A stretch of DNA of 64,000 bases, from positions 155-64,154 of the forward strand of contig JAAYTD010000005.1 of the NCBI GenBank assembly GCA_012518115.1. Reading direction: 5' to 3'. The notes under the pieces are model-generated. The model was not told the DNA's origin. It worked only from the letters and a program-made list of their open reading frames with translations, and made no database searches. Each line of letters starts with the position of its first letter. Positions within the stretch are counted from its first letter, which is position 1. Positions 3,997 through 64,000 of this stretch are shown here, in pieces. Source of the DNA: Ignavibacteria bacterium. Its GTDB lineage: Bacteria > Bacteroidota > Ignavibacteria > Kapaibacteriales > UBA2268. Both the position numbers and the translations under genes were made by a program.

Positions 3997-4193
3997 ATAG
4001 ATTTACAAAAGCATATACTTTTGTAAAAGAGGTGTGAGTTTTTTTTATAAAACATTTTATTTCAGAAATATTTTACAACTTTACACGTTGAATTAGAAAT
4101 AAAGAAAAAAACGAACACAAAACATTTTTAGTGCTATCTACGCAAAAGAATAGATTTTAAAAAAACAGATTATAAATTTTATACTACAAGTCT

Positions 4194-5858
4194 ATGGAAG
4201 AAAATATTGTAAAAACGGACGTTTTAATTATTGGAGCGGGACCATCTGGACTTTCTGCAGCTATTCACCTTGCTGATTTATTCAAGCAAAATGAACTTGA
4301 CAAACAAATCATTGTGGTAGATAAAGGGCAGTCTGTCGGTTCGCATATTTTGTCTGGAGCAATTATAAAACCGAAAGTCTTTTCGGAACTTATGCCAGAT
4401 GTAAAAAAAGAGGAAATACCTTTCAACAGCAAGGTAACAAAAGATGCGATGTATATGCTTACAAGCCGCACTAGTTCTTTCAAAATGCCTTTCACTCCGC
4501 CTTATATGGGCAATCAAGGCAACTATGTTGCATCGTTGGGAGAAATTTGTCGCTTTTTGGCAAATAAAGCTACAGAGAAAGGAGTAGAAATCTATACAGG
4601 TTTCGCTATGAGCGAACTCCTTTATGATGAGGCTGATAATGTTATCGGAGCAAAGTGCATCGATACAGGTGTAGACCACAATGGCGAAAAACTAGAAAAC
4701 TATGTGGAAGGCACAGGCGTTCAGGCTGATATAACTATTTTAGCTGAAGGTACTCGCGGCAGTTTAGCAAAACAATTAATCAAAAAGAAGAATCTACATG
4801 AGGGTAAAAACCCGCAAATTTATTCACTCGGCTGCAAAGAGCTTTTCTCTGTACCAGAGGGAACTATAAGTCCGGGAGAAGTGTATAACACAATGGGCTT
4901 CCCTGCAATGCAAGATGGTGTTTTTGGAGGTGGTTTCATATATGGCTTGACAGATAATCGTGTAGCATTAGGTTTGGTGCTCGGACTTGACTATGCAGAT
5001 CCAACCTATGACATTTTCCGTGCCTTACAAATCTGGAAAACTCACCCGTTTGTAGAAAAGTTTGTAAAAGAAGGAAAACTTTTGGAATATGGTGCTAAGA
5101 CTCTCCCAGAAGGCGGTTTCTACTCTCTAACTAAATACTACACAAACGGAGCTATGATAGTAGGGGATTCTGCTGGATTCCTCGCTATGCCCGCTCTAAA
5201 AGGCGTACATTTGGCTATCTATTCAGGAATGTGTGCTGCAAAAACTGCATTAGAGGCATTTAAGCAAAATGATTTCTCTGAAGAAACTCTGAAAAAATAT
5301 AAGGAGTTTGTAGAGAAGTCACCTATTTACAAAGAGATGTATAAATGTAGAAACTTCCGTCAGGGCTTCTCGAAAGGCACTTTCGCAGGAATGTTTAATT
5401 TCGGCACACAGATAATAACAGGCGGAGCAGGTTTCTGTGGCAAGCTCAGTGTAAAATCAGATGCAGAACACACAAAAACTATAGCGGACTTTAAGAAAAC
5501 TACCTTTAAGCAGAAATACGCATCTTATGATTTGGATAAACCTTATGTATTCAGCAAAGTAGATGACGTTTTCTATTCAGGTACTTTGCACGATGAAGAG
5601 CAGCTTGTTCACCTAAGAGTAAAAGACATGCAGAAGTATGTTTCAGAAAATATCGCAAAATATGACGCTCCTTGTCAGTATTACTGTCCTGCTGAGGTTT
5701 ACGAAATCCACACCGATAGAAATACTGGTCATAAAGAGCTTCGTATTCATTCTGAGAACTGCGTACATTGCAAAACTTGTGATATTAAAGAGCCATTACA
5801 AGCAATAGAGTGGAATGTTCCAAATGGCGGTAATGGACCTGACTATAAAAATATGTAA
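4194..5858 (+). CDS. Electron transfer flavoprotein:quinone oxidoreductase (ETF-QO; FixC+FixX-like in one chain)
   Basis: FAD-binding GAGPSG, SHILSGA, LPEGG, GDSAGF...KGVHLAI. C-terminal 4Fe-4S motif CPAEVYE...NCVHCKTCDIKEP. Confidence 0.92.
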   Translation: MEENIVKTDVLIIGAGPSGLSAAIHLADLFKQNELDKQIIVVDKGQSVGSHILSGAIIKPKVFSELMPDVKKEEIPFNSKVTKDAMYMLTSRTSSFKMPFTPPYMGNQGNYVASLGEICRFLANKATEKGVEIYTGFAMSELLYDEADNVIGAKCIDTGVDHNGEKLENYVEGTGVQADITILAEGTRGSLAKQLIKKKNLHEGKNPQIYSLGCKELFSVPEGTISPGEVYNTMGFPAMQDGVFGGGFIYGLTDNRVALGLVLGLDYADPTYDIFRALQIWKTHPFVEKFVKEGKLLEYGAKTLPEGGFYSLTKYYTNGAMIVGDSAGFLAMPALKGVHLAIYSGMCAAKTALEAFKQNDFSEETLKKYKEFVEKSPIYKEMYKCRNFRQGFSKGTFAGMFNFGTQIITGGAGFCGKLSVKSDAEHTKTIADFKKTTFKQKYASYDLDKPYVFSKVDDVFYSGTLHDEEQLVHLRVKDMQKYVSENIAKYDAPCQYYCPAEVYEIHTDRNTGHKELRIHSENCVHCKTCDIKEPLQAIEWNVPNGGNGPDYKNM

Positions 5859-5897
5859 TTCGCAAAAGTGTTGAACCAAATAAAAAGTGAAAAAACT

Positions 5898-7841
5898 ATG
5901 GCATTAACTATTATAACATTAATAAAACAAGTTCCGCTGCCCTCTGAAATGAGAATGGGCGACGACGGACTTATGGATAGAACAAAGGCAAAATCTATCA
6001 CAAATATTGACTGCCAATTTGGTTTGGAGGCAGGATTACAGCTAAAAAAGAGATATCCAGACGCACGTATGATTGTCTGCTCTATGGGACCTCAATCTTT
6101 TGAACAATCCCTGAAAAGATCTATCTCTATGGGCTACGATGAGGCTTATTTGCTATCTGATAGAAAACTTGGTGGTTCCGATACATTTGCTACAGGTTTA
6201 GCTATATCTACCATGCTAAAACACCTCGGTTTCCACAAAGATAGTAAGGAGCCTTTTATAATCTTGTCTGGCAGGCAGTCATCTGACGGTGACACAGCCC
6301 ACGTACCTTCACAGGTAGCTGAAGCTATGGGTTTACCTCAGGCAACTTTTATAGAACGTATTGAAGCTAATCCAGACGGCACTATTACAGCTCGCCGTAT
6401 CATTGAGGGAGGTTATCAGATACTCAAATTACCTATGCCTTGCGTTATCTCGTTTACGCCAACAGGCATCAAACCTCGCAAACCTTCGCTTTTGGGAGCA
6501 ATGAAGGCTCGTCGCTCACAGATAGTGGTAAAAAGCGTAGATGATATAAAAATGTCTGAAGAGAATCAGAAGCTAATCGGTATAAACGGCTCGCCCACAT
6601 TAGTAGCTGGGATCGAAAATATTGAGTCTGACCGCCCGCCTATAATGATGGCTGTAGGTAACTCTGAGAAGGAATTAGTGGACTCTTTGATAGAGAACAT
6701 CGAAAAAGGTGGTAATGAGTTGGTCAAAAAGGAAGCGAAAGCAAAGAAAGAGGTAGATACCACAGGAATGGAAGTGGTGGATTTGCGTGGCGACAATAAA
6801 GGAATTATTACTTGGGCAGAGGTAACTGGCGATAAAATTGGTCGTCCCTCGCTTGAACTTCTTACTCCTGCTCGCCATCTCGCTGAACAGCTCGGCAATG
6901 ATACAAAAATTACAACTGTGCTTATTGGTAAGAATGTGAAACATTTGGCACAAACACTATTCGAACACGGAACAGACGAAGTTGTAGTAGTAGAACATGA
7001 TAAGTTGGAAGAGTATTTAATTCTGCCATTTGCAGATATTATGACACAAATCATCTGCCAAAGAAAGCCAGAGATTGCGCTGTTTGCTGCAACAACTGCA
7101 GGACGTGAACTTGCTCCACGAGTAGGAATGAAAACAAGTTCTGGAGTTACAGCAGACTGTACCGCTTTGGAGATTGGCGACTATGTAGATAGAAAAAATT
7201 CTCGTGTTATCCGTCCGATACTCCACAGTCGTCGTCCTACTTTTGGCGATAGCAAGTTAGCTACAATTCTTGGCTCTGTTTATCCGCAAATCTCTACAGC
7301 TCGTGCGGGAACGTTCGCTGTGCCAGAAGTTCAAGCGGGCAGAACGGGCAATATCATTGAGTTTCAGCCAACCCTAAAGGATGAAGACTTTGTAACCTCT
7401 ATTGTAGAAACTGTTCGTGGCGATGGCGGATTGACTTCGTTGTTTGAGGCGGATATCATAGTATCTGGTGGTCGTGGCACAGTGGGAGAAGAACTTAAAC
7501 TCGTCAAAGAACTTGCCGAAGCCCTAAAGCAGCAAGGTTACAAGGCTGAATGGGCTTGTAGCCGTGTGGTAGTAGATGAAGGCTATGCTGAATATGCTCG
7601 CCAAGTAGGACAGACAGGTAAAACTGTTCGCCCTAAGATTTATATAGCTGTTGGTATAAGCGGTGCTATACAACACCTCGCAGGCATCAAGGAGGTAGGC
7701 AAAATTATAGCTATCAACCAAAATCCTAAGGCAAATATATTCCGACATGCAGACTTCGGCGTGTGTGGCTTATACCAAGATATCCTACCTGAACTCATCG
7801 AAAGAGTAAAACAAGGATATGCTTTCGGAGTTACAAAATAA
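5898..7841 (+). CDS. Fused electron transfer flavoprotein beta-alpha (EtfB-EtfA)
   Basis: N-half EtfB motifs (KQVP, GGSDTFAT, GRQSSDGDTAHV). C-half EtfA motifs (GVTADCT, RPTFG, ADIIVSGGRG, QVGQTGKTVRP, GISGAIQH, AIN). ATG at 5898 preferred over TTG at 5868. Confidence 0.92.
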   Translation: MALTIITLIKQVPLPSEMRMGDDGLMDRTKAKSITNIDCQFGLEAGLQLKKRYPDARMIVCSMGPQSFEQSLKRSISMGYDEAYLLSDRKLGGSDTFATGLAISTMLKHLGFHKDSKEPFIILSGRQSSDGDTAHVPSQVAEAMGLPQATFIERIEANPDGTITARRIIEGGYQILKLPMPCVISFTPTGIKPRKPSLLGAMKARRSQIVVKSVDDIKMSEENQKLIGINGSPTLVAGIENIESDRPPIMMAVGNSEKELVDSLIENIEKGGNELVKKEAKAKKEVDTTGMEVVDLRGDNKGIITWAEVTGDKIGRPSLELLTPARHLAEQLGNDTKITTVLIGKNVKHLAQTLFEHGTDEVVVVEHDKLEEYLILPFADIMTQIICQRKPEIALFAATTAGRELAPRVGMKTSSGVTADCTALEIGDYVDRKNSRVIRPILHSRRPTFGDSKLATILGSVYPQISTARAGTFAVPEVQAGRTGNIIEFQPTLKDEDFVTSIVETVRGDGGLTSLFEADIIVSGGRGTVGEELKLVKELAEALKQQGYKAEWACSRVVVDEGYAEYARQVGQTGKTVRPKIYIAVGISGAIQHLAGIKEVGKIIAINQNPKANIFRHADFGVCGLYQDILPELIERVKQGYAFGVTK

Positions 7842-7880
7842 GGACAAATGATTTTTTAAGATCAATAAATTTTTTTATAG

Positions 7881-7921
7881 AATAGTAGTCGTAGTACATA
7901 AATTACGGCTACTATTTTTTT
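7881..7921 (+). terminator. Intrinsic terminator after etf operon
   Basis: AATAGTAGTCGTA...TACGGCTACTATT hairpin followed by a T run. Confidence 0.65.
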
Positions 7922-8043
7922 ACTCTTGAGAATCAATACTTTTTTTATTGTATATTATTCAAATGGGTATAAAAGCAAACTTAATGTAACTTTAATATAG
8001 TATTCATATTATCTTCACACTAATGTATTAATTTTGTACGTGT

Positions 8044-8051
8044 TAAATTTG
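8044..8051 (+). promoter_or_regulatory. Bacteroidota-type -7 promoter element (TAAATTTG)
   Basis: Matches TAnnTTTG, 40 nt upstream of the receptor start. Confidence 0.5.
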
Positions 8052-8090
8052 TATTTCATAATTTTTTCAAAAACAATATAAGGTTTTTAC

Positions 8091-11000
8091 ATGTACAACA
8101 AAATTATTTACAACAAAATCATTGTTACAACATTTATGTTCTTCGCACTCTGTATGACTGCATTTTCGCAAGCAAATACAACTGCGAGTATATCCGGGTT
8201 CGTTAAAAATACCGATGGGAACCCTCTTATAAGTGCCACTGTCAGAGTGGAGCATTTGCCCACAGGCACGAAAAGCGGTGCTATCACAGGTAGAACAGGA
8301 AAATATAATATTCTTGGTCTAAAAGTAGGTGGTCCGTATAAAGTTATGATTTCTATGGTAGGTTATGAAGCACAGACTTTTGAAGATGTATTCCTATCAC
8401 TGAATGAAGCACTTACGCTAAATGTAAGTCTTAAAGAACAAGCTACTATGATTGATCCCGTTGTCGTAGAGGTAACAAAGAATGACATTATTTCAAGCGA
8501 TAAGACAGGTGCTACTTACAAAATATCTGAAATAGATATTGATAATTTGCCGACTATTGCCAGAAGTATTCACGATTATTCTCGTCTTAGTCCATTGATA
8601 GTTTCTTCATCAAGTGATGGCTCAAATGTAGCCGGAAGAAATACACGATATAACAATATCACTATTGACGGTGCAGTAATAAACGACGCTTTCGGTTTAG
8701 CTTCATCAGGTGGTGCTTTCGGTGGAACTGCCGGTACTCAGCCTATCTCTCTTGATGCGATTGAGCAATTCCAAGTATCCATATCACCTTTTGATATTAA
8801 AGAAGGCGGATTCACAGGTGGCTTAATTAACGCAATTTCTAAAAGTGGTACTAATAATTTGACCGGTTCTGTTTATTATTTCGGCAGAAATAAAAACTTT
8901 ATCGGCAATAACCCTGTATCTGATTTACCTTATCCTGATTTCAATGAATCACAAATTGGTGCCAGAGTTGGCGGTCCAGTTATTAAAAATAAACTGTTCT
9001 ATTTTGCAAATTTTGAAATGGGTCTTCGTTCAGAACCATACGTAATAGGTTTATTAGGTAGCAATGAAGCAAATATCTTCAGTATTTCAGCGGATTCTCT
9101 AAGAATAATTAGAGATGCAGTAATAAATAAATACGGCTACGATCCGGGTAGTTACGATGATTATACTAAAAAAATCAATAACTATAAATTATTCCTAAAG
9201 TTTGATTATAATATTAACGACAAAAATAGATTGACGCTAAGACATAACTTTGTAACAGGAGATCAAGGTAACGCTGTTTCCAGAAGTAGAAGTACTTTCT
9301 CTTATGCAAATCAAGAATACAAATTCAATAGTGTGCTAAATCAAACTGTGATGCAATTAAACTCAGTAATTACTCCACAATTAGTAAATGAATTGAAAAT
9401 GTCTTATACAGCTGTTAGAGAACACAGAGATCCGCTATCAAGTCCGTTCCCTTCCGTTACATTAAGAAATATGGGACAAGATGGAAAAGGTTTAATCACT
9501 TTCGGTATAGATAGATTCTCTCAAGCTAATGCCTTAGATCAAGATTTATTTGAATTTACTGATAATTTATTTTATTTCTTAGGTAATCACGTTTTAACAT
9601 TGGGAACAAGTAACCAAATGGTTAGTTCAAATAACTTATTCTTACAGGATTACTATGGAGCTTGGGAATTTTCTGCGGATGCAAATGGCTCAAGTTTAGA
9701 TAACTTTTTAGCAGGAAAAGCTTCTAGATACATGTTGTCCTATGCTAATACAGCAGCTACAGATGGAGAATTAAAACCAAGAGCTAATATGAGATATTTC
9801 CAATGGGGCTTTTATGCTCAGGATGAATGGTCTGTATTAGAAAATTTGAAATTGACAGCCGGTTTCAGAGTTGATTTATTCTCCTTTACAAAAAAACCTT
9901 TAGAAAATTCTCAATTCGCTGCTCCACATAATTGGTATGGAATGGATGCAGGCAGTGTGTTAAATACTTCTGTTATTCCAAACCCAATTTCTTATTCTCC
10001 AAGAATTGGATTTAATTGGGACGTAAATAATGATAAACAGATCCAATTACGTGGTGGCGTTGGTCTATTCTCCGGTAGAACTCCGGGCGTTTGGATCTCA
10101 AATCAATTCTCTTCTACAGGTGTTGATGTTTTAAGAATTGATGAAAGAAATACTCAATATACTTTCACTCCAGATGTAAACAATCAACCAAGACCGGATA
10201 ATCCAAAAGCTCAGACTACAGAAATTAATATAACTGATCCGAACTTAAAAATGCCACAAATATTAAGAGGAAACTTGGGATTTGATTATCAATTGCCATT
10301 AGGATTTGTGCTTACTTTAGAAGCTCTTTACGGAAAAACAATTTATGATATTGAGTATCAAAATATTAATCTTCAGTATGCAAAAAATGATGACGGAACA
10401 ATTGCAACTACTATCGACGGAAGAAACTTATATAGTAAAGAACAAGTAGATAAATCGTTTACAAGGGTTATCTATATGAAAAATACTACTCAAGGTAACC
10501 AGCTTAACTTAGTAGCTCAAATTCAAAAACCTTACGGACAAGGTATATTACCTAATCTATCTGCAAATTTAGCTTATACTTTTAGCAAAGTAGAAGATGT
10601 GAATCCTCTTACTTCAAGTAGAGCAGTTTCAAACTGGCAATATAATGTAGGATTAGATCCGAATGCAAGCGAATTAACCAGATCTTCTTACGAAGTTCCT
10701 CATAAAATTATGGCGAATATCTCATATACTTTTGATTATTCAAAGAACTTCGCAACTACAATTGGTATATACTACGAAGGACGTAGCGGACTTCCGTTCT
10801 CTATGGTTTATGTAGAAGATGCAAACGGCGATAATATATATGGTAATGACCTTATTTATATCCCTACCGGTGCAAGTGATCCTAAATTTAATTTAATTAC
10901 TAATAATTGGGATGAACTAAATGCACTTATTGATGATTTTGATTATCTAAAAAATAATCGCGGTAAAATCATGGAAAAAAATTCATTAAACACACCTTGG

Positions 11001-11390: not shown

Positions 11391-12293
11391 CTACACTAAA
11401 CCGCCCGCAAACGTGCCGATAACCTGTAGCATAACAAAAACCATTACTAGCTGAGCCGAAGCTTCATCCATCTGCTTTATATTTTCAAGTTTATCTATGT
11501 CCGCACTTTGCATTTGCTTTATTGCTTTCAATAGTAACGGAAATGAAAGGAACACAATTAAAGTTAGCCAGTGTTGAATGCCGATTAACACCGTTACCAA
11601 CACTAGCAGATAAGCTCCTAACCCCAAAACAGTATAATATCTTATAGAGCCTTTAACACCCATTAGCATAGCCATTGTTTTGATGTTAGCTACTTTGTCG
11701 TTTTTGATATCGCGTGTGTTGTTGGCGTGCAAGACATTTACAATAAGTAACCCCGGTGCCGCTGCAACCAGCAGAATTTCCCAACTCAGCATATTTGTCA
11801 TTACCAAATAAGTTCCTAACGAAATCAATTGTCCGTAGATAACAAAAATTGTCAAATCTCCCAATGCTTTATATTTGAAAAAGAAATAAAAATAAGAGCC
11901 AAAAACGCCTATCAACCCAATCCAAAGTAAATGAAACGATGTATTAAACAGCAAATAAAGCCCGATTAAATTACCGACAACCATACAAATAATGCCGAAC
12001 CAAAACACCTCTTTTGTAGTAAAAATTTTATCAACTAACATTGGACTTGAACCGTATGTTCCTTTTCTGTCCACATTGTTTTTGTAGTCGTAATAGTCGC
12101 TTATTAAGTTGCCACCCGACTGCAAAATAGGTGCTGCCAAAGCTGCTAAAATTCCATACCACCAATTGACCGTTATAGACTCCGTGCTACTTCGATAAAA
12201 CGCATAAGCAATAGCCAACACTGCCGGCATAAAAGAAAGCACATGTCCCCAAGTACGTGTCAAAATTATCCAGTCTTTTATAGTGTGTTTCAT
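11391..12293 (-). CDS. menA: 1,4-dihydroxy-2-naphthoate octaprenyltransferase (UbiA family)
   Basis: N..SDYYDYKNNVD and ANNTRDIKNDK..NIKT motifs; about 8 TM helices. Confidence 0.85.
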   Translation of the reverse strand: MKHTIKDWIILTRTWGHVLSFMPAVLAIAYAFYRSSTESITVNWWYGILAALAAPILQSGGNLISDYYDYKNNVDRKGTYGSSPMLVDKIFTTKEVFWFGIICMVVGNLIGLYLLFNTSFHLLWIGLIGVFGSYFYFFFKYKALGDLTIFVIYGQLISLGTYLVMTNMLSWEILLVAAAPGLLIVNVLHANNTRDIKNDKVANIKTMAMLMGVKGSIRYYTVLGLGAYLLVLVTVLIGIQHWLTLIVFLSFPLLLKAIKQMQSADIDKLENIKQMDEASAQLVMVFVMLQVIGTFAGGLV

Positions 12294-17400: not shown

Positions 17401-17650
17401 TTTAAAATTTTTATTTTTGACGAACTATTTTTACTTATTTTGGTCTATTCATTAATTTTTTTAGTTTTGAGTTACAATAATAATATTTTTTTTCCTAACT
17501 CCCAACAAAAAAAACAAAAAAAGCGATATTTTATTAAATTTTATTTCATTTTTACATTTTTTTTACATAAATTTATAGTTTTGATCTAATACACAATGTC
17601 AAAAAATATTTGTTTTTAAAAACTGTCTTTCATAAAAAGAGGTATTGTTA

Positions 17651-19105
17651 ATGGACGTAAAAGAATTAAATGTAAGATTGTCAAAACTCACTGGTTTGAC
17701 TTTTTCAGGCAAAACTCGCAAAGAAAGTGACTTAATAGGTGATCGCGAAATTCCTAATGAACTTTATTTAGGAGTGCAAACTTTGCGCGCAATTGAAAAT
17801 TTTGATATAAGCAGAACAACATTGCGTGATTTTCCTTATCTTGTACGTGGTTTAGCCGAAGTTAAAAAAGCGGCAGCAATAGCTAATTCAACGCTTGGTT
17901 TATTAGATAAATCTATTTGCGATGCTATTTCAAAAGCTTGTGATGAAATAATTGCAGGTAAACTACATGAAAATTTTGTTGTTGATTTAATTCAAGGCGG
18001 TGCAGGAACTTCGACTAATATGTGTGCTAACGAAGTTATAGCTAATCGTGCTTTAGAAATTTTAGGTAAAGAAAAGGGCGAATACAAATTCTGTAGCCCT
18101 AATGATCATGTAAACTTAGCTCAATCTACAAACGATGCTTATCCGACAGCTTTACATATTGCATTTTTATATTACAACAATGATGTTATTGCAAGTTTAA
18201 AAGAGCTCGTTGCTTCATTCAGAAAAAAATCTGTTGAGTTCAAAGATTTTGTAAAAATGGGACGCACACAATTGCAAGATGCTATTCCTATGACATTAGG
18301 ACAAGAATTTGAAGCTTTTGCAAAAACTTTAGAAATAGAAATCTCGAATTTAGAGTGTGCTGTTTCTTGGTTAAAGTCGGTTAATATGGGAGCTACTGCT
18401 ATAGGAACAGGCTTAAATTGTCATGAAAAATATCCTGAAATTTGCGTAAAAGAATTAGCGAAAATTTCTAACTTAGATCTTAAATTAACTGACAATTTAA
18501 TTGAATCTACTCCTGATACAAGTGGATTTGTATCATATTCGGGAGCATTGAAAAGATTAGCTATAAAAGTATCCAAAATATGTAACGATTTACGCTTGCT
18601 AAGCTCAGGCCCACGTGCTGGTTTAGCAGAAATAAATTTACCAAAGATGCAACCCGGTTCATCTATTATGCCGGGAAAAGTAAATCCTGTTATTCCAGAA
18701 GTTGTAAATCAAGTATGCTTCAAAGTTTTTGGTAACGATACGACTGTTAATTTCGCTGCTGAAGCTGCTCAATTGCAGCTCAATGTAATGGAGCCGATAA
18801 TAGTTGAAAGCATATATGAGTCTATGAACTATTTAATTTCAGCTATGAATACATTAAGAACTCTTTGCATTGACGGAATTACTGCTAATGCAGAACGTTG
18901 CAAAGAAATGGTATTACATAGTATAGGAATTATTACTGCTCTTAATCCACATATCGGATATAAAGCTAGTACTACTATCGCTAAAGAAGCCTTAGAAACT
19001 GGACGCGGAATATATGAACTGATTTTAGAAAAAGGAATTTTAGAAAAATCAAAATTAGACGAAATTTTGAAGCCTGAAAATATGTGTAGCTTCAATATCA
19101 AATAA
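17651..19105 (+). CDS. aspA: Aspartate ammonia-lyase
   Basis: Y.G.QTLRA.ENF, QGGAGTSTNM, STNDAYPT, KMGRTQLQDA, GSSIMPGKVNPV, QLQLNVMEP. Confidence 0.93.
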   Translation: MDVKELNVRLSKLTGLTFSGKTRKESDLIGDREIPNELYLGVQTLRAIENFDISRTTLRDFPYLVRGLAEVKKAAAIANSTLGLLDKSICDAISKACDEIIAGKLHENFVVDLIQGGAGTSTNMCANEVIANRALEILGKEKGEYKFCSPNDHVNLAQSTNDAYPTALHIAFLYYNNDVIASLKELVASFRKKSVEFKDFVKMGRTQLQDAIPMTLGQEFEAFAKTLEIEISNLECAVSWLKSVNMGATAIGTGLNCHEKYPEICVKELAKISNLDLKLTDNLIESTPDTSGFVSYSGALKRLAIKVSKICNDLRLLSSGPRAGLAEINLPKMQPGSSIMPGKVNPVIPEVVNQVCFKVFGNDTTVNFAAEAAQLQLNVMEPIIVESIYESMNYLISAMNTLRTLCIDGITANAERCKEMVLHSIGIITALNPHIGYKASTTIAKEALETGRGIYELILEKGILEKSKLDEILKPENMCSFNIK

Positions 19106-23623: not shown

Positions 23624-23647
23624 CAATAATAAACCTTGCAGATAATT

Positions 23648-25399
23648 ATGTTAGAAAATTCCAAAAACAAGGACCAAGTTTCGGTGTTTTTTTCTTTAGA
23701 AAACACATTGAAACAAAAAGATGTTATTATTTTATTAATAGTAATAGCTATAATAAATTTTGCGTTTATTAGAAAGGAATTATATGCGCAAGATCTATCA
23801 CAACTGCCTTCTACAAATCCATTTAGCATTGGTGGGTCTATCGGAGTGAATTTATCTTCTTACGGTGCTGAAGGTATACAAAATAGATCTAAAAACTTTG
23901 ATTACTCTCTTCTTGGCTCATTAAATTTAAACATATATGGCATAAATATCCCTTTTAATGCTACTATAAGTGATCAAAATCGAAGCTTTACTCAGCCGTT
24001 TAACCAATATGGAGCAAGCCCTTATTACAAATGGGTAAAACTTCACGCCGGTTATAGAAATATTACTTTTTCTCCTTTTACTTTAGCAGGACATAGTTTT
24101 CTTGGCGGAGGTATTGAACTGACTCCTGGATCACTTCGTTTTGGAGCTGTGTACGGTAGATTTCTTCGTGCTTCTGAGGGAGATACAAATTCATATAGTT
24201 CCATAACTCCAGTATATAAAAGAATGGGTTATTCAGTTAAGTTAGGGTACGGCAGTGCTACAGATAACATAGATTTAATATTTTTAAATGCTTGGGACGA
24301 CAGTACTTCCATATCAAATCCTACTATTAAGAAGAATCTTAAGCCTGCCGAAAATAAAGTATTTGGTATCAGAAGCGCAAAATCTTTATGGAAAAATGTA
24401 TTTTTTGAGTTTGATGCAGCTGCAAGCCTATATACTATGGACTTAAGAGCTGATCCAATAATTGATTCTACTGCTGATCAAACATTGAAAAGCATTAATG
24501 AAATAATTAACATAAATTCTTCTTCGCAATTGACATCATCATTAGCTACTTCATTAATTTATAAAATCAAGTCTTTTGCTTGTCGGTTAAATTATAAGAG
24601 AATTGATCCTGATTATAAATCTATGGGAGCATATTATTCGGAATCAGATGTACAAAATATTACTTTTGCCCCGACATATTCAATGCTTAACAATACTTTG
24701 AGATTAGGAGGAAGTATAGGCTGGCAAACCGATAATTTGTCTAATCTGAAACGAAATTCAACAAATAGGCTGATTGGCTCATTTGATGCTTCTTATCAAG
24801 AGCAGACTTACGGAGTGAATTTACGCTATACTTCTTACGGAATTTCACAGTCAAAAGGATATTCTATGGTTATTGATACATTAAAGATATCCAGAGTAAA
24901 TCACAATCTTAACGCTACAGGAAGATATACATTAAATTTAAATTCTACCTCACATTTATTTTTACTTAATCTTGGTTATCAATCTTTGAATGATAATAAT
25001 GCTCTAACTGCACCTTCTTCAGAGACAAGTAACTATACAGCATTATTTAGTTATAATATGGCTATAAGTGAAATAGGGCTTACTCTATCATCTAATATTA
25101 ACTATATCCATTCTATTGTAGCTAATAATATTAACGACTTTTTGGGACCTGCAATTAATGCAACTTACTCTCCTAAATCTGACTATTCATTAGGAGCAGG
25201 GATCGCCTATCAATCGCAATCGTACAACAGTAACAAGGCTGCCGATATTATTAATTTACAGCTAAATGCTTCGTATAACATTACTAAAAATCATTCATTA
25301 AGATTAGACTGTAACTATTTAAATAACAATTCAAAAACCGAACAACCAAGTTTTTCTGAAGCAAGAATTAATCTTGGCTACATATATAATTTTTATTGA
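23648..25399 (+). CDS. Putative outer-membrane beta-barrel protein (cassette gene 1)
   Basis: Alternating amphipathic strands throughout, ending INLGYIYNFY. The best signal peptide begins at TTG 23708 (MKQKDVIILLIVIAIINFAFIRKELYA). Confidence 0.7.
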   Translation: MLENSKNKDQVSVFFSLENTLKQKDVIILLIVIAIINFAFIRKELYAQDLSQLPSTNPFSIGGSIGVNLSSYGAEGIQNRSKNFDYSLLGSLNLNIYGINIPFNATISDQNRSFTQPFNQYGASPYYKWVKLHAGYRNITFSPFTLAGHSFLGGGIELTPGSLRFGAVYGRFLRASEGDTNSYSSITPVYKRMGYSVKLGYGSATDNIDLIFLNAWDDSTSISNPTIKKNLKPAENKVFGIRSAKSLWKNVFFEFDAAASLYTMDLRADPIIDSTADQTLKSINEIININSSSQLTSSLATSLIYKIKSFACRLNYKRIDPDYKSMGAYYSESDVQNITFAPTYSMLNNTLRLGGSIGWQTDNLSNLKRNSTNRLIGSFDASYQEQTYGVNLRYTSYGISQSKGYSMVIDTLKISRVNHNLNATGRYTLNLNSTSHLFLLNLGYQSLNDNNALTAPSSETSNYTALFSYNMAISEIGLTLSSNINYIHSIVANNINDFLGPAINATYSPKSDYSLGAGIAYQSQSYNSNKAADIINLQLNASYNITKNHSLRLDCNYLNNNSKTEQPSFSEARINLGYIYNFY

Positions 25400-60818: not shown

Positions 60819-63800
60819 ATGAAGAAAAATCTTCTTCGCTTAATGGCTTTGGGTGTATTTGCTGCTTCAGCAACAGCGGTGGCAGAAGTCCCAACAACGT
60901 TTAACTTTCAAGGAAGGTTAACAAACACAAAAAATGAACCAGTAACATCAACTGTTGATGTAACGTTCGAAATTTTTGATGTTCCTCAAGGTGGAACACC
61001 ACTTCACACTGAGGTTATGAGTATTACTCCTGACCAAGGTTATTTTAATGTAAGAATTGGTGCTGATTTAACAAATCCAATTCAAAAAGCTGTTGTAGAC
61101 GGTAAAAAAGCTTTATGGTATCAAGTAACTTTTGCTGGTGTTAAACAACAAAGAGTTATGTTTGACGCTGTGCCTTACGCTTTAGGTGCTCAAGTTGCAA
61201 GTACTGCTGATACTGCTCTATTTGCATTCCAAGCGGATTCAGCTAATTATGCTGTAAAAGCAGGCGAAGCTAATCCAGTTGGACCAGCAGGTGGCGTATT
61301 ATCCGGAAATTATCCTAATCCTGGTTTCAACAATGCTAAATTTGTTGAAGCATTAAAAGGAAATCTGACATCAGATATGTTACCAGAAGATTTAAGAGCT
61401 GTTCCTAAAGGACCAGCTGATGGTGATATTGAAGGATATTATCCAAATAGCTTGAAAATTAAACAAAATGCAGTGAAAACTATCCATTTATTCAATGGAG
61501 CAGTTTCTCTACCTAAATTAGCTAAACCTGATTTTGAAGGTACTTCTAATATGATGTGGTGGAATCCAAATAATACTTCCGAGTATAAATGGGAATATTC
61601 TACTATTAAAAATATCATAGGTCCTAATTTAGATAACGGCGCTATTCCAGTTTGGGACGAAAATGCAGAAAGATTTAAACCAAGTGTTATTTCTGCTGAC
61701 GATGATGGCGCTCTTGTTGCAGGTGCTTTGACAGTTACAGGTGCAACAGTTACTAACGGTATCACAAATACAGGCGATATTACTAATAGCGGTAATATTG
61801 CAAATGCAGGCAATGTAGCTGTAGGTGGTACATTAGATGTAACAGGTGCAACTACTTTAAATAATACTTTAGCAGTAGCAGGTGCAACAACAACTAATGG
61901 TATCACAAATACAGGCGATATCAATAATAGTGGTGCGGTAAACACTGCAACTCTAACAACAACAGAAGGTGCAACAATCGGTGGTGATGTAGCTGTAGGT
62001 GGTACATTAGATGTAACAGGTGCAACTACTTTAAATAATACATTAGATGTAACAGGTGCAACTACTTTAGGTAGTACTTTAGATATAGCAGGTGCGACTA
62101 CTGTAGGTGGTACTTTAGCAGTAACAGGTGCAACAACTACAAACGGTATCACAAATACAGGTAATATTACTAGTAGTGGTGATATTACTAATGGTGGTAA
62201 TATTGCAAATACAGGTAATGTAGCTATAGGTGGTACATTAGACGTAGCAGGTGCAACTACTTTAGATAATACATTAGACGTAGCAGGTGCAACTACTGTA
62301 GGTGGTACTTTAGCAGTAGCAGGTGCAACAACAACTAATGGTATTACTAATACAGGCGATATCAGAACTACAAACAATATGATAGTTGAACGCAATTTAA
62401 CAGTTGCAGAAAAAACAACAACTGATAACTTAGTTGCTACTACAGCTACTTTCGGAAATGCAAACTATAGAATCGGTTCTCTTGATGCTAGAGGCTTGCC
62501 TCCAGGTGGTACTATTGATGAAGCTTTTGCTTCTAAAAAATATGTAGATGAAACTCTTAAAGTTACTGTTGTTGATGCAAACTATATCCCAGTTTCAAAC
62601 GGAGATAACTATGAGAACAGTATTATTAAACGTGCTGACGATCCTGCTGTTACTGATAGCGTATTTGTTGTTGGTAAATTGGGCGTAAGAGATAATATAA
62701 CTGCTCTTAACGGAAGTATGGAAGTACGCAATGCTGACAACACTAATCCTGGACAAGGCTTCAAAGTTTATAACGATGCTGTTAATACAGGTAGTGGTTC
62801 AATGCTCGCTTTCTTAGGCGAAGATGCTACTTCAGGTAAATTAGAATTATTCAATACTTATAAAGCTACAGCTGTTCAAACTACTCCTAATCCTATTGTT
62901 GGACTTGGAATAAATGATGAAGCAGGACCAATAGACGGTGGTATCATATCTGTTTATGACGGCGATGGACCAGGCGATGATCATGTTGTTGCTACTATGT
63001 ATTCAAACGATGACAATACAGGAAGCTTATATATAAAAAGTATATTACCAGGACCTGGCTTTAATGCTCCTGTTAATGCAAGACCTGCATTAAAAGTTGA
63101 TGGTTCAGTACCTTCTGTTCTTATGAATGCTAATGTGGATATGATATCTCCTGATAAAACTGCAACATTTAAATTAAACGATGATGGTACTATTATTACA
63201 AGTGGCACTACAATCTTTGAAGTAGAAGATGCAGGTGTTGATATTACAGGTGCTCTTCATACAACTGGTGATGCTACTTTCGATAACGATGTAGCAGTAG
63301 GTAACGATTTAAATGTAGCTGGTAATACAGATTTAACAGGTACATTAAATGTAGATGGTGCAACAACTATAAATAATACATTAGACGTAACAGGCTTAGC
63401 TAGCTTAGACGGCGGTATTAATGTAAATGATAAATTTACAGTAGATGGTGCTACAGGCAATATTGCTACTGCAGGTACTTTGAATGTAGCTGGTAATGCT
63501 AATCTTTTAGGTGACATTACTACTATCGGTGTAGATGCAACAGATAATTTAGTTGTAAATGCAACATCAACATTCGTTGCTCCTGTAACTGTAAATAATT
63601 TAACAGTTAATAATGATTTAACAGTATTAGGCAATACAACAACAAATGGTATTGATAATACAGGAGATATTAATAATACTGGTGCAGTAAATACTGCAAC
63701 TCTAAAAACAACAGGTAATGCGGAAATCGGTGGCAATCTAGATGTACTTGGCAACACAGATTTAACAGGTACATTAAATGTAGATGGTGCAACAACTATA

Positions 63801-64000
63801 AATAATACATTAGATGTAACAGGTTTAGCTAGCTTAGACGGTGGAATTAATGTAAATGATAAATTTACAGTAGAACCTACTGCAGGTAATACTTTAACTA
63901 AAGGTAATTTGACTGTAGAAGGCAATACAACTTTAGGTAATGATGCAGCTGTTGATGTAGTTACAATTACTGCTGACGTTACTCTTACAGCAAATAGCGA
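60819..64000 (+). CDS. Giant fibre/adhesin-like repeat protein, 3'-truncated by window end (>1060 aa)
   Basis: Missing from the ORF track. MKKNLLRLMALGVFAASATAVAEVPTTFNFQGRL...VPYAL...GPAGGVLSGNYPNP, then GGTLDVTGATTLNNTL-type repeats. Frame checked in-phase at 61800 and 63960. Confidence 0.85.
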   Translation, partial: MKKNLLRLMALGVFAASATAVAEVPTTFNFQGRLTNTKNEPVTSTVDVTFEIFDVPQGGTPLHTEVMSITPDQGYFNVRIGADLTNPIQKAVVDGKKALWYQVTFAGVKQQRVMFDAVPYALGAQVASTADTALFAFQADSANYAVKAGEANPVGPAGGVLSGNYPNPGFNNAKFVEALKGNLTSDMLPEDLRAVPKGPADGDIEGYYPNSLKIKQNAVKTIHLFNGAVSLPKLAKPDFEGTSNMMWWNPNNTSEYKWEYSTIKNIIGPNLDNGAIPVWDENAERFKPSVISADDDGALVAGALTVTGATVTNGITNTGDITNSGNIANAGNVAVGGTLDVTGATTLNNTLAVAGATTTNGITNTGDINNSGAVNTATLTTTEGATIGGDVAVGGTLDVTGATTLNNTLDVTGATTLGSTLDIAGATTVGGTLAVTGATTTNGITNTGNITSSGDITNGGNIANTGNVAIGGTLDVAGATTLDNTLDVAGATTVGGTLAVAGATTTNGITNTGDIRTTNNMIVERNLTVAEKTTTDNLVATTATFGNANYRIGSLDARGLPPGGTIDEAFASKKYVDETLKVTVVDANYIPVSNGDNYENSIIKRADDPAVTDSVFVVGKLGVRDNITALNGSMEVRNADNTNPGQGFKVYNDAVNTGSGSMLAFLGEDATSGKLELFNTYKATAVQTTPNPIVGLGINDEAGPIDGGIISVYDGDGPGDDHVVATMYSNDDNTGSLYIKSILPGPGFNAPVNARPALKVDGSVPSVLMNANVDMISPDKTATFKLNDDGTIITSGTTIFEVEDAGVDITGALHTTGDATFDNDVAVGNDLNVAGNTDLTGTLNVDGATTINNTLDVTGLASLDGGINVNDKFTVDGATGNIATAGTLNVAGNANLLGDITTIGVDATDNLVVNATSTFVAPVTVNNLTVNNDLTVLGNTTTNGIDNTGDINNTGAVNTATLKTTGNAEIGGNLDVLGNTDLTGTLNVDGATTINNTLDVTGLASLDGGINVNDKFTVEPTAGNTLTKGNLTVEGNTTLGNDAAVDVVTITADVTLTANS

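Follow-up and report, generated by a model that had tools for sequence, protein, structure and literature searches.

A two-gene cassette of a canonical-type ETF:quinone oxidoreductase and a fused, bifurcating-type EtfB-EtfA as a candidate NADH:menaquinone and ferredoxin bifurcating system

Can electrons from NADH be bifurcated to quinone by anything simpler than the four-subunit Fix/EtfABCX complexes, the only systems from which, to our knowledge, this reaction is known biochemically? The question is raised by two adjacent genes in a stretch of 64,000 nucleotides of contig JAAYTD010000005.1 (assembly GCA_012518115.1), referred to here as the window. The first gene encodes an electron transfer flavoprotein (ETF):quinone oxidoreductase (ETF-QO), and the second an ETF in which EtfB and EtfA are joined in a single chain; together we call them the QO-EtfBA pair. 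Judging from sequence and gene context, we give slightly better than an even chance to the reading that the pair is a reversible bifurcating system working like EtfABCX, with NADH on one side and menaquinone plus ferredoxin or flavodoxin on the other.

Architecture of the fused ETF

The open reading frame (ORF) of the fused protein (P0002) extends from GTG 5868 to 7841 and could encode 657 amino acids (aa); the true start is almost certainly ATG 5898 (MALTII...), because all homologues, at 645–648 aa, begin at this position, with the conserved N-terminus MALTII(S/T)LIKQVP. Pfam assigns the protein to the ETF superfamily, with two matches to PF01012 (200 bits) and one to PF00766 (101 bits). The ORFs, together with the Pfam and NCBIfam models, thus agree with a preliminary description of the locus, which had placed EtfB and EtfA in one ORF directly behind a single-chain ETF-QO. 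An AlphaFold2 model of the fused protein has a single-chain ETF fold (pLDDT 83, pTM 0.84), with low-confidence blocks at the junction of the EtfB and EtfA parts (mean pLDDT 67–69 over residues 271–290). The top Foldseek matches of this model are all structures of bifurcating ETFs (5ol2_A, 4kpu_A, 7qh2_A, 6fah, and 7koe_B), with E values against ETF structures of 1e-25 to 1e-10.

ETFs dock onto their partners through a recognition loop in EtfB. The corresponding segment of the fused protein, PRKPSLLGAMKARR, aligns with PRYA(S/T)LPNIMKAKKK of canonical ETFs and with PRYADLPNLIRA of Thermotoga maritima EtfB, and its Leu and Gly are invariant in the fused family.

Motifs, similarity and phylogeny of the fused ETF

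We use the labels group 1 and group 2 in what we take to be the sense of Garcia Costas et al. 2017. The three bifurcating-type motifs that the preliminary description had read in the fused protein (SDGDTAH, GVTADCT, and RRPTFG) are indeed present. In the alignment, all six proven bifurcators carry DGDT(A/G)QV in EtfB, whereas the canonical references have DDD or DND; the segment GRQSSDGDTAHV of the fused protein retains DGDT but has H for the Q of GxQxxDGDTxQV and PS for GP. TADCT is found in all proven bifurcators except Acidaminococcus fermentans (CADCT) and in none of the canonical or E. coli Fix/Ydi references; E. coli FixAB and YdiQR lack both DGDT and TADCT, with FixA and YdiQ carrying DLYAQQ. 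More broadly, the fused family and the proven bifurcators share KQVP, MGP, DRxxGGSDT, GRQxSDGDTAxV, ATxxGRELAPR, GVTADCT, and RRPT(F/Y)G, in place of which canonical ETFs have KRV, no GGSDT, DDD or DND, SDI/TDV/SEI, and RPIYAGN. The second Arg of RRPTFG, equivalent to Arg140 of T. maritima, is invariant in 40 members of the fused family, and its replacement in T. maritima (R140Q and R140M) abolishes bifurcation (PMC10734219). As canonical ETFs also carry this Arg, it is necessary for bifurcation and does not discriminate between the types.

Similarity to ETFs of known structure points the same way. In phmmer searches of all Protein Data Bank (PDB) chains, the best scores fell to five bifurcating systems and were at least double those of canonical ETFs. 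The EtfA half scored 213–157 bits against bifurcating chains (CarE 213, C. difficile EtfA 211, and T. maritima EtfA 177, with LctC and A. fermentans EtfA also among the matches), compared with approximately 105–90 bits against human (105), Paracoccus, and Methylophilus ETF; the EtfB half scored 132–92 bits (CarD 132, A. fermentans EtfB 114, T. maritima EtfB 92) compared with 56–36 bits for canonical proteins.

For phylogeny, the reference set combined chain segments aligned in the PDB searches with sequences from annotated records of plasmids and of E. coli. Among them were Rhizobium etli FixAB, encoded beside nifW and nifA, a Bcd-linked ETF of Ilyobacter, canonical EtfBA (R. etli, Hydrogenophaga, and Paracoccus), FixAB and YdiQR of E. 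coli, and one ETF each from a haloarchaeon and a lactobacillus. In a maximum-likelihood tree of concatenated EtfB and EtfA parts, the fused family is monophyletic (100/100) and lies inside a clade (98/95) that holds all six proven bifurcating ETFs: CarDE, those of A. fermentans and C. difficile, LctBC, T. maritima EtfABCX, and R. etli FixAB. A second tree, to which 12 representative-cluster proteins were added, recovered the bifurcating clade (96/96) and a shorter stem for the fused family. Canonical and haloarchaeal ETFs and E. coli FixAB/YdiQR fall outside this clade in both trees, so that, within a small reference set, the fused ETF groups with proven bifurcators to the exclusion of canonical ETFs. 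Motifs, PDB scores, and both trees therefore support the assignment of the fused EtfB-EtfA, at the level of sequence, to the group-2 (bifurcating-type) ETFs, as the preliminary description had proposed. The trees give no specific support to a position of the fused ETF as sister to the T. maritima EtfAB/FixAB branch: these two group with each other (100/99 in the first tree, 88/89 in the second), and the fused family sits elsewhere in a group-2 polytomy in both trees, nearest to another fused protein, P0135 (91/81 in the second tree, with limited reference sampling).

Lineage of the quinone oxidoreductase

Turning to the first gene, Pfam finds the FAD (flavin adenine dinucleotide) N-terminus and the quinone-binding and cluster domains of ETF-QO all in one chain. 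Residues 5–554 align end to end with residues 33–584 of pig ETF-QO (2gmh) at 385 bits, an alignment that takes in the C-terminal signature CPAxVYE...NCVHCKTCDIK...GGxGPxYxxM, compared with 104 + 41 bits for T. maritima EtfC and EtfX. Identity to proteobacterial ETF-QOs is 37–42% over the full length (350–416 bits), against 22–24% (100–125 bits) to rhizobial FixC and FixX read through as one chain. Across 73 orthologues Cys498, 523, 526, and 529 never vary, unlike a fifth Cys (494), which is not conserved; four invariant Cys indicate one [4Fe-4S] cluster, as in pig ETF-QO, compared with two in EtfX (PMC10734219). By these sequence comparisons the ETF-QO of the pair falls in the canonical ETF-QO lineage, whose members are always single chains, and on similarity and Cys count alike a fusion of FixC and FixX was rejected. 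The pair is hence not a fused EtfABCX, contrary to the view of the locus as that four-subunit complex compressed into two chains. The domains are those of a canonical ETF-QO, whereas the ETF co-inherited with it is of the group-2 rather than the group-1 type.

A conserved cassette

Both genes lie on the forward strand, with 39 bp between the ETF-QO stop and ATG 5898. When ORFs were called in 81 loci and clustered, 77 had ETF-QO immediately 5' of the fused ETF in the same orientation, the other four showing the fused gene only, and the recurrence of this ordered pair implies that the arrangement is not due to chance. In Bacteroidales the flanks of the pair are unrelated from locus to locus, and no dehydrogenase, ferredoxin, or cytochrome partner is conserved beside it in the Bacteroidales loci among the 81. 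Pairwise distances of ETF and ETF-QO co-vary across two phyla (Mantel r 0.93; 0/999 permutations), which fits co-inheritance and joint transfer of the two genes between the phyla, with the caveat that shared ancestry alone inflates r. The evidence supports the view that QO-EtfBA is a conserved, self-contained, and mobile two-gene cassette.

Contigs of a biogas-fermenter metatranscriptome cover positions 4177–4787, 5337–5646, and 5957–7842 at approximately 100% identity. The third of these stretches runs out at the ETF stop codon, and depth falls to zero from 7912 to 9063. This end and the loss of depth agree with the terminator-like hairpin behind the fused gene (Table 1) and suggest a two-gene transcript, contig depth being a poor measure. 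In a sigma-70 promoter scan of the region upstream of ETF-QO, matches at 4156–4185 were not above chance; Bacteroidales promoters were not covered by the scan. The stretch that holds the cassette is also present, at a word share of 0.8–1.0, in biogas-fermenter, anaerobic-digester, and bioreactor metagenomes.

Relatives and the case for a conventional ETF

The window pair is an ordinary member of a very large family. A word-index search returned at least 1,793 proteins among the 8,000 best-scoring candidates; the 120 matches listed are fused relatives, and the named ones among the matches listed are Bacteroidales. Two scans of GTDB, with one genome per species, found relatives of the fused ETF in 134 and then in at least 525 species. 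They include Paludibacteraceae (the closest, 90% identity), Dysgonomonadaceae, Prolixibacteraceae, Tannerella, Proteiniphilum, and oral taxon 274 and, at 64–67% identity, the Campylobacterota Sulfurimonas, Sulfurovum, Nitratifractor, Sulfurospirillum, and Arcobacteraceae. The Bacteroidales among them come from gut, mouth, termites, digesters, and sediments; the Campylobacterota are sulfur oxidisers.

Fusion of EtfB to EtfA is itself widespread. The best 150 representative clusters consist mostly of fused proteins of 590–670 aa at 29–36% identity, most with group-2 motifs, and at least three other fused lineages (about six placements in the tree) all fall within the group-2 clade; one of these proteins, P0138, is sister to R. 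etli FixAB. With dozens of other fused lineages among these clusters, the fusion was rejected as a novelty; it is not rare, group 2 containing many separate lineages of fused proteins. Another fused protein, P0127 (674 aa, 44% identity), belongs to the same subfamily and has the same insert and ESKLAT; it has no adjacent ETF-QO and is directly followed by a gene of the lactate/malate dehydrogenase (Ldh/Mdh) family (L164 4999–8086; L165 1528–4615). The product of this neighbour is approximately 40% identical to both Mdh paralogues of Campylobacterota (see below), so that these identities point to neither as its orthologue. The P0127 loci also adjoin genes for Ras/Arf-like GTPases.

Among these relatives are some that would suit a conventional ETF, in which electrons from distant flavin dehydrogenases (for acyl-CoA, of the lactate or glycolate type, or amino-acid-derived) would pass through the fused ETF and ETF-QO to menaquinone, as in the mitochondrial and proteobacterial chain, with the second nucleotide site merely structural. 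The distant fused protein P0135 (36% identity) is encoded near a 565-aa acyl-CoA dehydrogenase, without an ETF-QO (L162 2578–7325), and a 58%-identical relative of the window protein, with ETF-QO upstream, is accompanied at a distance of 5 kb by genes for a separate, split ETF, so that relatives can coexist with split ETFs. The 37–42% identity of the ETF-QO to classical ETF-QOs and the retained recognition loop of EtfB would likewise be expected. Nevertheless, we hold this alternative to be unlikely. The window contains no dehydrogenase partner, and a Pfam scan of its ORFs of at least 120 aa found no acyl-CoA dehydrogenase, in agreement with the preliminary description; nor is any flavin dehydrogenase a conserved neighbour of the pair in the 81 loci. 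The sole neighbour that recurs, an Mdh, depends on NAD and is no flavoenzyme. In addition, the motifs and the trees are those of NADH-dependent group-2 ETFs rather than of canonical ones.

Gene context in Campylobacterota

This recurrent neighbour, an Mdh paralogue, lies directly 3' of the fused ETF in all 27 Campylobacterota loci. In many of them the order, on one strand, is icd-mdh-[ETF-QO-EtfBA]-mdh-fumAB-sucCD-oorDABC, where fumAB encodes the alpha and beta parts of fumarate hydratase; among the carriers of this (reductive) tricarboxylic acid ((r)TCA) cluster are Sulfurimonas sp. CS5 and Sulfurovum sp. CS9, whose genomes are complete. Between the two Mdh paralogues identity is approximately 50%, and within either group it is 75%. 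Several loci have only the QO-EtfBA-Mdh triplet, which identifies the triplet as a mobile module in Campylobacterota. This context ties the pair to steps that use NAD(H) (Mdh), ferredoxin (oorDABC, for 2-oxoglutarate:ferredoxin oxidoreductase), and, via fumarate reductase, menaquinol. Two cold-seep chemoautotrophs, FCS5 and FCS9, have rTCA genes (PMC12113678), and names alone suggest a link between them and the CS5 and CS9 genomes. According to McNichol and Sievert (10.1101/717884), how ferredoxin is reduced in chemoautotrophic Campylobacteria is unclear, and S. denitrificans has no known bifurcating complex.

Contigs with QO-EtfBA-Mdh (L119 and L030/L114) are labelled Helicobacter pylori, in L119 as a metagenome-assembled genome of PMSS1, or Campylobacteraceae, which may reflect mis-binning or recent transfer. 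In one of them the module is preceded by a DEAD-box helicase gene, an arrangement shared with Paludibacter loci, and the ETF of L030/L114 has a Bacteroidales-type N-terminus.

The tight QO-EtfBA-Mdh module, lying as it does within rTCA clusters in Sulfurimonas CS5 and Sulfurovum CS9, raises the possibility of confurcation, in which reduced ferredoxin or flavodoxin and menaquinol would together reduce NAD+ to NADH, for example for the adjacent Mdh. Calculated from standard potentials, the reaction is near equilibrium at physiological ratios, and either direction would be conceivable in rTCA Campylobacterota. As a general account of the pair we nonetheless regard confurcation as quite improbable: it would make little sense in fermenting Bacteroidales, which have a surplus of NADH and require menaquinol to reduce fumarate. 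It is also a variant of the bifurcating reading rather than a different machine.

Proposed mechanism

We infer the cofactor content of the QO-EtfBA pair, its NADH donor and ferredoxin acceptor, its direction, and its physiological role from the type of the two proteins and their gene context, and propose the following mechanism. One transcription unit would give rise to a membrane-associated complex with three flavins and one cluster, in which the recognition loop PRKPSLLGAMKARR may dock the fused ETF onto ETF-QO. The bifurcating FAD would lie between EtfB and EtfA domain I, at the sites marked by DGDT, TADCT, and RPTFG; the mobile C-terminal domain of EtfA would hold the electron-transfer FAD. 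NADH would reduce the bifurcating FAD; the first electron would then run 'downhill' to the electron-transfer FAD and from there into ETF-QO, where the [4Fe-4S] cluster and the FAD would relay it to menaquinone, and the remaining low-potential semiquinone electron would reduce a ferredoxin or flavodoxin whose gene lies elsewhere. The predicted net reaction, 2 NADH + MK + 2 Fd(ox) -> 2 NAD+ + MKH2 + 2 Fd(red), where MK is menaquinone and Fd ferredoxin, is probably reversible.

In a fermentative Bacteroidales host the forward direction is likely, and the pair would provide an extra outlet for NADH. Bacteroidales use menaquinone, not ubiquinone, and the menaquinol formed could serve fumarate respiration, while reduced ferredoxin or flavodoxin could be used by a hydrogenase, Rnf, a complex I without NuoEFG, or 2-oxoacid synthases. 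In rTCA Campylobacterota, if the stoichiometry is as proposed, the menaquinol and the two reduced ferredoxins from one bifurcating turn might meet the needs of fumarate reduction and of one reductive carboxylation. Complex I of Bacteroidales and Campylobacterota is not known to carry the NADH-oxidising NuoEF(G) module, and a bolder claim, that QO-EtfBA is an unrecognised reversible bifurcating/confurcating enzyme that supplies the missing redox link where NuoEF(G) is absent, we consider doubtful.

Several observations weigh against bifurcation by the QO-EtfBA pair. The ETF-QO is of the type that normally serves non-bifurcating ETFs. A six-frame search of the window with the pattern CxxCxxCxxxC(P/A/G) and flavodoxin-loop patterns found no ferredoxin or flavodoxin, and none is conserved beside the pair in the 81 loci. 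The fused family has a long stem, of 1.98 substitutions per site in the tree without added intermediates, and has replaced VPDT by VPLPS, NPxD by NIDC, and QVGPQ by HVPSQ; it also has a family-specific insert of 9–13 aa just upstream of RPxFG and, downstream, G(D/E)SK in place of GGN. AlphaFold2 confidence is lowest at residues 13–35 and 129–131, which overlap the VPLPS, NIDC, and HVPSQ blocks, so the nucleotide or cofactor bound there could differ. The tree reference set is small, and some references are only the parts aligned in the PDB search; metatranscriptome contigs can contain DNA carry-over; and no biochemistry on any member of the family was found in the literature.

Such changes near the motifs, at the expected site of the bifurcating flavin, would suit a non-bifurcating NADH:menaquinone oxidoreductase, in which NADH would be oxidised at the flavin of the EtfB site and both electrons would pass, singly, through the electron-transfer FAD and ETF-QO without a low-potential acceptor. 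Alongside Nqr and Ndh2 the pair would then be a third NADH dehydrogenase, one that does not pump. The lack of a ferredoxin or flavodoxin gene in the window or conserved beside the pair and the ordinary single-cluster ETF-QO are as this alternative predicts, and adjacency to Mdh in other phyla requires no more than turnover of NADH. We nevertheless judge it rather unlikely: every characterised member of the clade of the fused family bifurcates or confurcates, the essential Arg, DGDT, and TADCT are invariant, and the Campylobacterota module stands beside the ferredoxin-dependent oorDABC.

Relation to known systems

The chemistry predicted for the pair is already known from EtfABCX (T. maritima and Pyrobaculum aerophilum; 7koe) and FixABCX (Azotobacter and Rhizobium). 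Like the pair, these combine a group-2 ETF with a membrane-associated quinone reductase containing FAD and Fe-S, have no substrate dehydrogenase, and carry DGDT, TADCT, RPTFG, and the essential Arg; the same overall reaction is predicted for the pair. They differ in being built from four polypeptides rather than two, with EtfC and a separate two-cluster EtfX in EtfABCX in place of a single-chain ETF-QO with one [4Fe-4S] cluster, and the fused ETF, which the trees do not specifically join to the T. maritima/Fix branch, has family-specific substitutions and an insert near the bifurcating-type motifs.

Pig ETF-QO (2gmh; EC 1.5.5.1) is collinear with the ETF-QO of the pair over its whole length and has the same FAD, quinone-binding, and single-cluster domains. 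Mitochondrial and proteobacterial ETF-QOs partner a group-1 ETF, whereas the ETF of the pair is fused and lacks the DDD-type AMP motif; the pair has no acyl-CoA dehydrogenases nearby, and its host uses menaquinone rather than ubiquinone. The highest similarity of both halves of the fused ETF, in sequence and in fold, is to Bcd-EtfAB, CarCDE, and Ldh-EtfAB (5ol2, 4kpu, 6fah, and 7qh2) of Clostridia, Acidaminococcus, and Acetobacterium, which share its motifs; these have split subunits and a soluble flavin dehydrogenase as the high-potential acceptor, and CarE and LctC carry an N-terminal ferredoxin domain that, as judged from where the alignments start, the fused ETF lacks. Finally, metagenomic fused EtfB-EtfA proteins (for example P0138, P0136, and P0153; 29–36% identity) have the same beta-then-alpha chain and mostly group-2 motifs; except for P0127, such proteins are separate lineages without the insert and the G(D/E)SKLAT signature.

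No published description of a fused EtfB-EtfA or of the QO-EtfBA pair was found in the literature, which included PMC6085437, PMC10734219, 10.1101/765248, and PMC13147460, and a mention in Garcia Costas et al. 2017 is possible. A broad survey of bifurcating enzymes places Fix in Proteobacteria and Firmicutes and mentions neither fused forms nor Epsilonproteobacteria (PMC6085437).

If bifurcation by the pair is confirmed, one ETF chain and a classical ETF-QO would constitute a second, structurally simpler route to quinone bifurcation. In Sulfurimonas and Sulfurovum, the pair would be a candidate source of reduced ferredoxin and NAD(P)H, an open problem according to 10.1101/717884, and in those with the rTCA cycle the pools of NAD(H), menaquinone, and ferredoxin would be coupled through it: in the forward direction, NADH would yield reduced ferredoxin for 2-oxoglutarate and pyruvate synthases, and in reverse, ferredoxin and menaquinol would yield NADH for the co-encoded malate dehydrogenase. 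In Bacteroidales, glycolytic NADH would be split between fumarate respiration and a ferredoxin-driven ion pump. Should the pair not bifurcate, it would still be an unrecognised NADH- or ETF-linked entry to the menaquinone pool of abundant anaerobes. A single-chain ETF would, moreover, be convenient for structural and mechanistic work, and genome surveys that require four separate Fix subunits may miss the QO-EtfBA form.

Features of the window and neighbouring genes

The coordinates of the cassette, its motifs, and other genes of the window are collected in Table 1.

Table 1. Features of the QO-EtfBA cassette, its Campylobacterota gene context, and other genes of the window (positions are those of the window unless a locus is named)
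Feature	Coordinates	Strand	Evidence or remark
c-type cytochrome, 863 aa	1405–3996	+	11 CxxCH; hydrophobic N- and C-terminal segments
AT-rich intergenic region, candidate promoter region, 197 bp	3997..4193	+	cytochrome stop to ETF-QO start
ETF-QO (P0001), single chain, 554 aa	4194..5858	+	Pfam ETFQO_UQ-bd and Fer4_ETF_QO
FAD dinucleotide-binding motif VLIIGAGPSGLS of ETF-QO	4221..4256	+	aligned with pig ETF-QO and T. maritima EtfC motif
Quinone-binding domain of ETF-QO, residues 210–304	4821..5105	+	PF21162, 93 bits, cut-off 27.7
C-terminal [4Fe-4S] domain of ETF-QO, residues 453–552 (YYCPAEVYE ... CVHCKTCDIKEP)	5550..5849	+	PF05187, 128 bits
Fused EtfB-EtfA, 647 aa	5898..7841	+	Pfam ETF (twice) and ETF_alpha
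EtfB-like half, residues 15–280 of 657-aa ORF	5910..6707	+	NCBIfam EtfB and AcrB models
SDGDTAH within GRQSSDGDTAHV, bifurcating-type EtfB motif	6282..6302	+	invariant in 40 family members
EtfB recognition loop PRKPSLLGAMKARR, predicted partner-docking	6474..6515	+	alignment with canonical and T. maritima loops
Lys/Glu-rich linker, about 30 residues, EtfB C-terminus to EtfA N-terminus	6714..6803	+	absent from split ETFs (alignment)
EtfA-like half, residues 311–649 of 657-aa ORF	6798..7814	+	NCBIfam AcrA, 235 bits
GVTADCT, bifurcating-type EtfA motif	7143..7163	+	invariant in fused family
RRPTFG, second Arg equivalent to T. maritima Arg140	7230..7247	+	alignment to 7koe_B ...LLAMTRPTFGG...
Electron-transfer-FAD motifs QVGQTGKTVRP and GISGAIQH	7602..7676	+	conserved in all aligned ETF groups
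Terminator-like hairpin, 17-pair stem then T-run	7879..7918	+	38 bp past ETF stop
MenA-like UbiA-family prenyltransferase	11391–12293	-	TIGR00751, 101.2 bits, cut-off 102.15; 3.5 kb past cassette
Aspartate ammonia-lyase AspA	17645–19105	+	691 bits, above TIGR00839 cut-off
ORF	23636–25399		no Pfam match
Giant ORF, 2,506 aa	25434–32954	+	no Pfam domain above cut-off
Giant ORF, 3,941 aa	42060–53885	+	11 Big_5 Ig-like domains
ORF	60819–63998		no Pfam match
(r)TCA cluster icd-mdh-ETFQO-EtfBA-mdh-fumAB-sucCD-oorDABC	L124 3877–18054; L125 3541–19370		about 17 further Campylobacterota loci

The gene upstream of the cassette encodes the 11-haem c-type cytochrome, whose best model is ExtM of a selenite/tellurite-reduction operon, at 170 bits far below the cut-off of 800. 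Such a cytochrome is not usual in a fermenting member of the Bacteroidales, and contigs of the same metatranscriptome cover its gene; as a part of the system it was rejected, as probably unrelated to the pair, being absent from the flanks of the closest relative (91% identity) and from all other loci. The MenA-like gene fits a menaquinone-using organism, and AspA forms fumarate, the probable sink for menaquinol.

Among the references, an unannotated etfB lies between bcd and etfA on Ilyobacter polytropus pILYOP01 (approximately 4000–4830; L007) and is split by a frameshift, possibly as a pseudogene or through a sequencing error. Within the window, the two giant ORFs presumably encode surface proteins.

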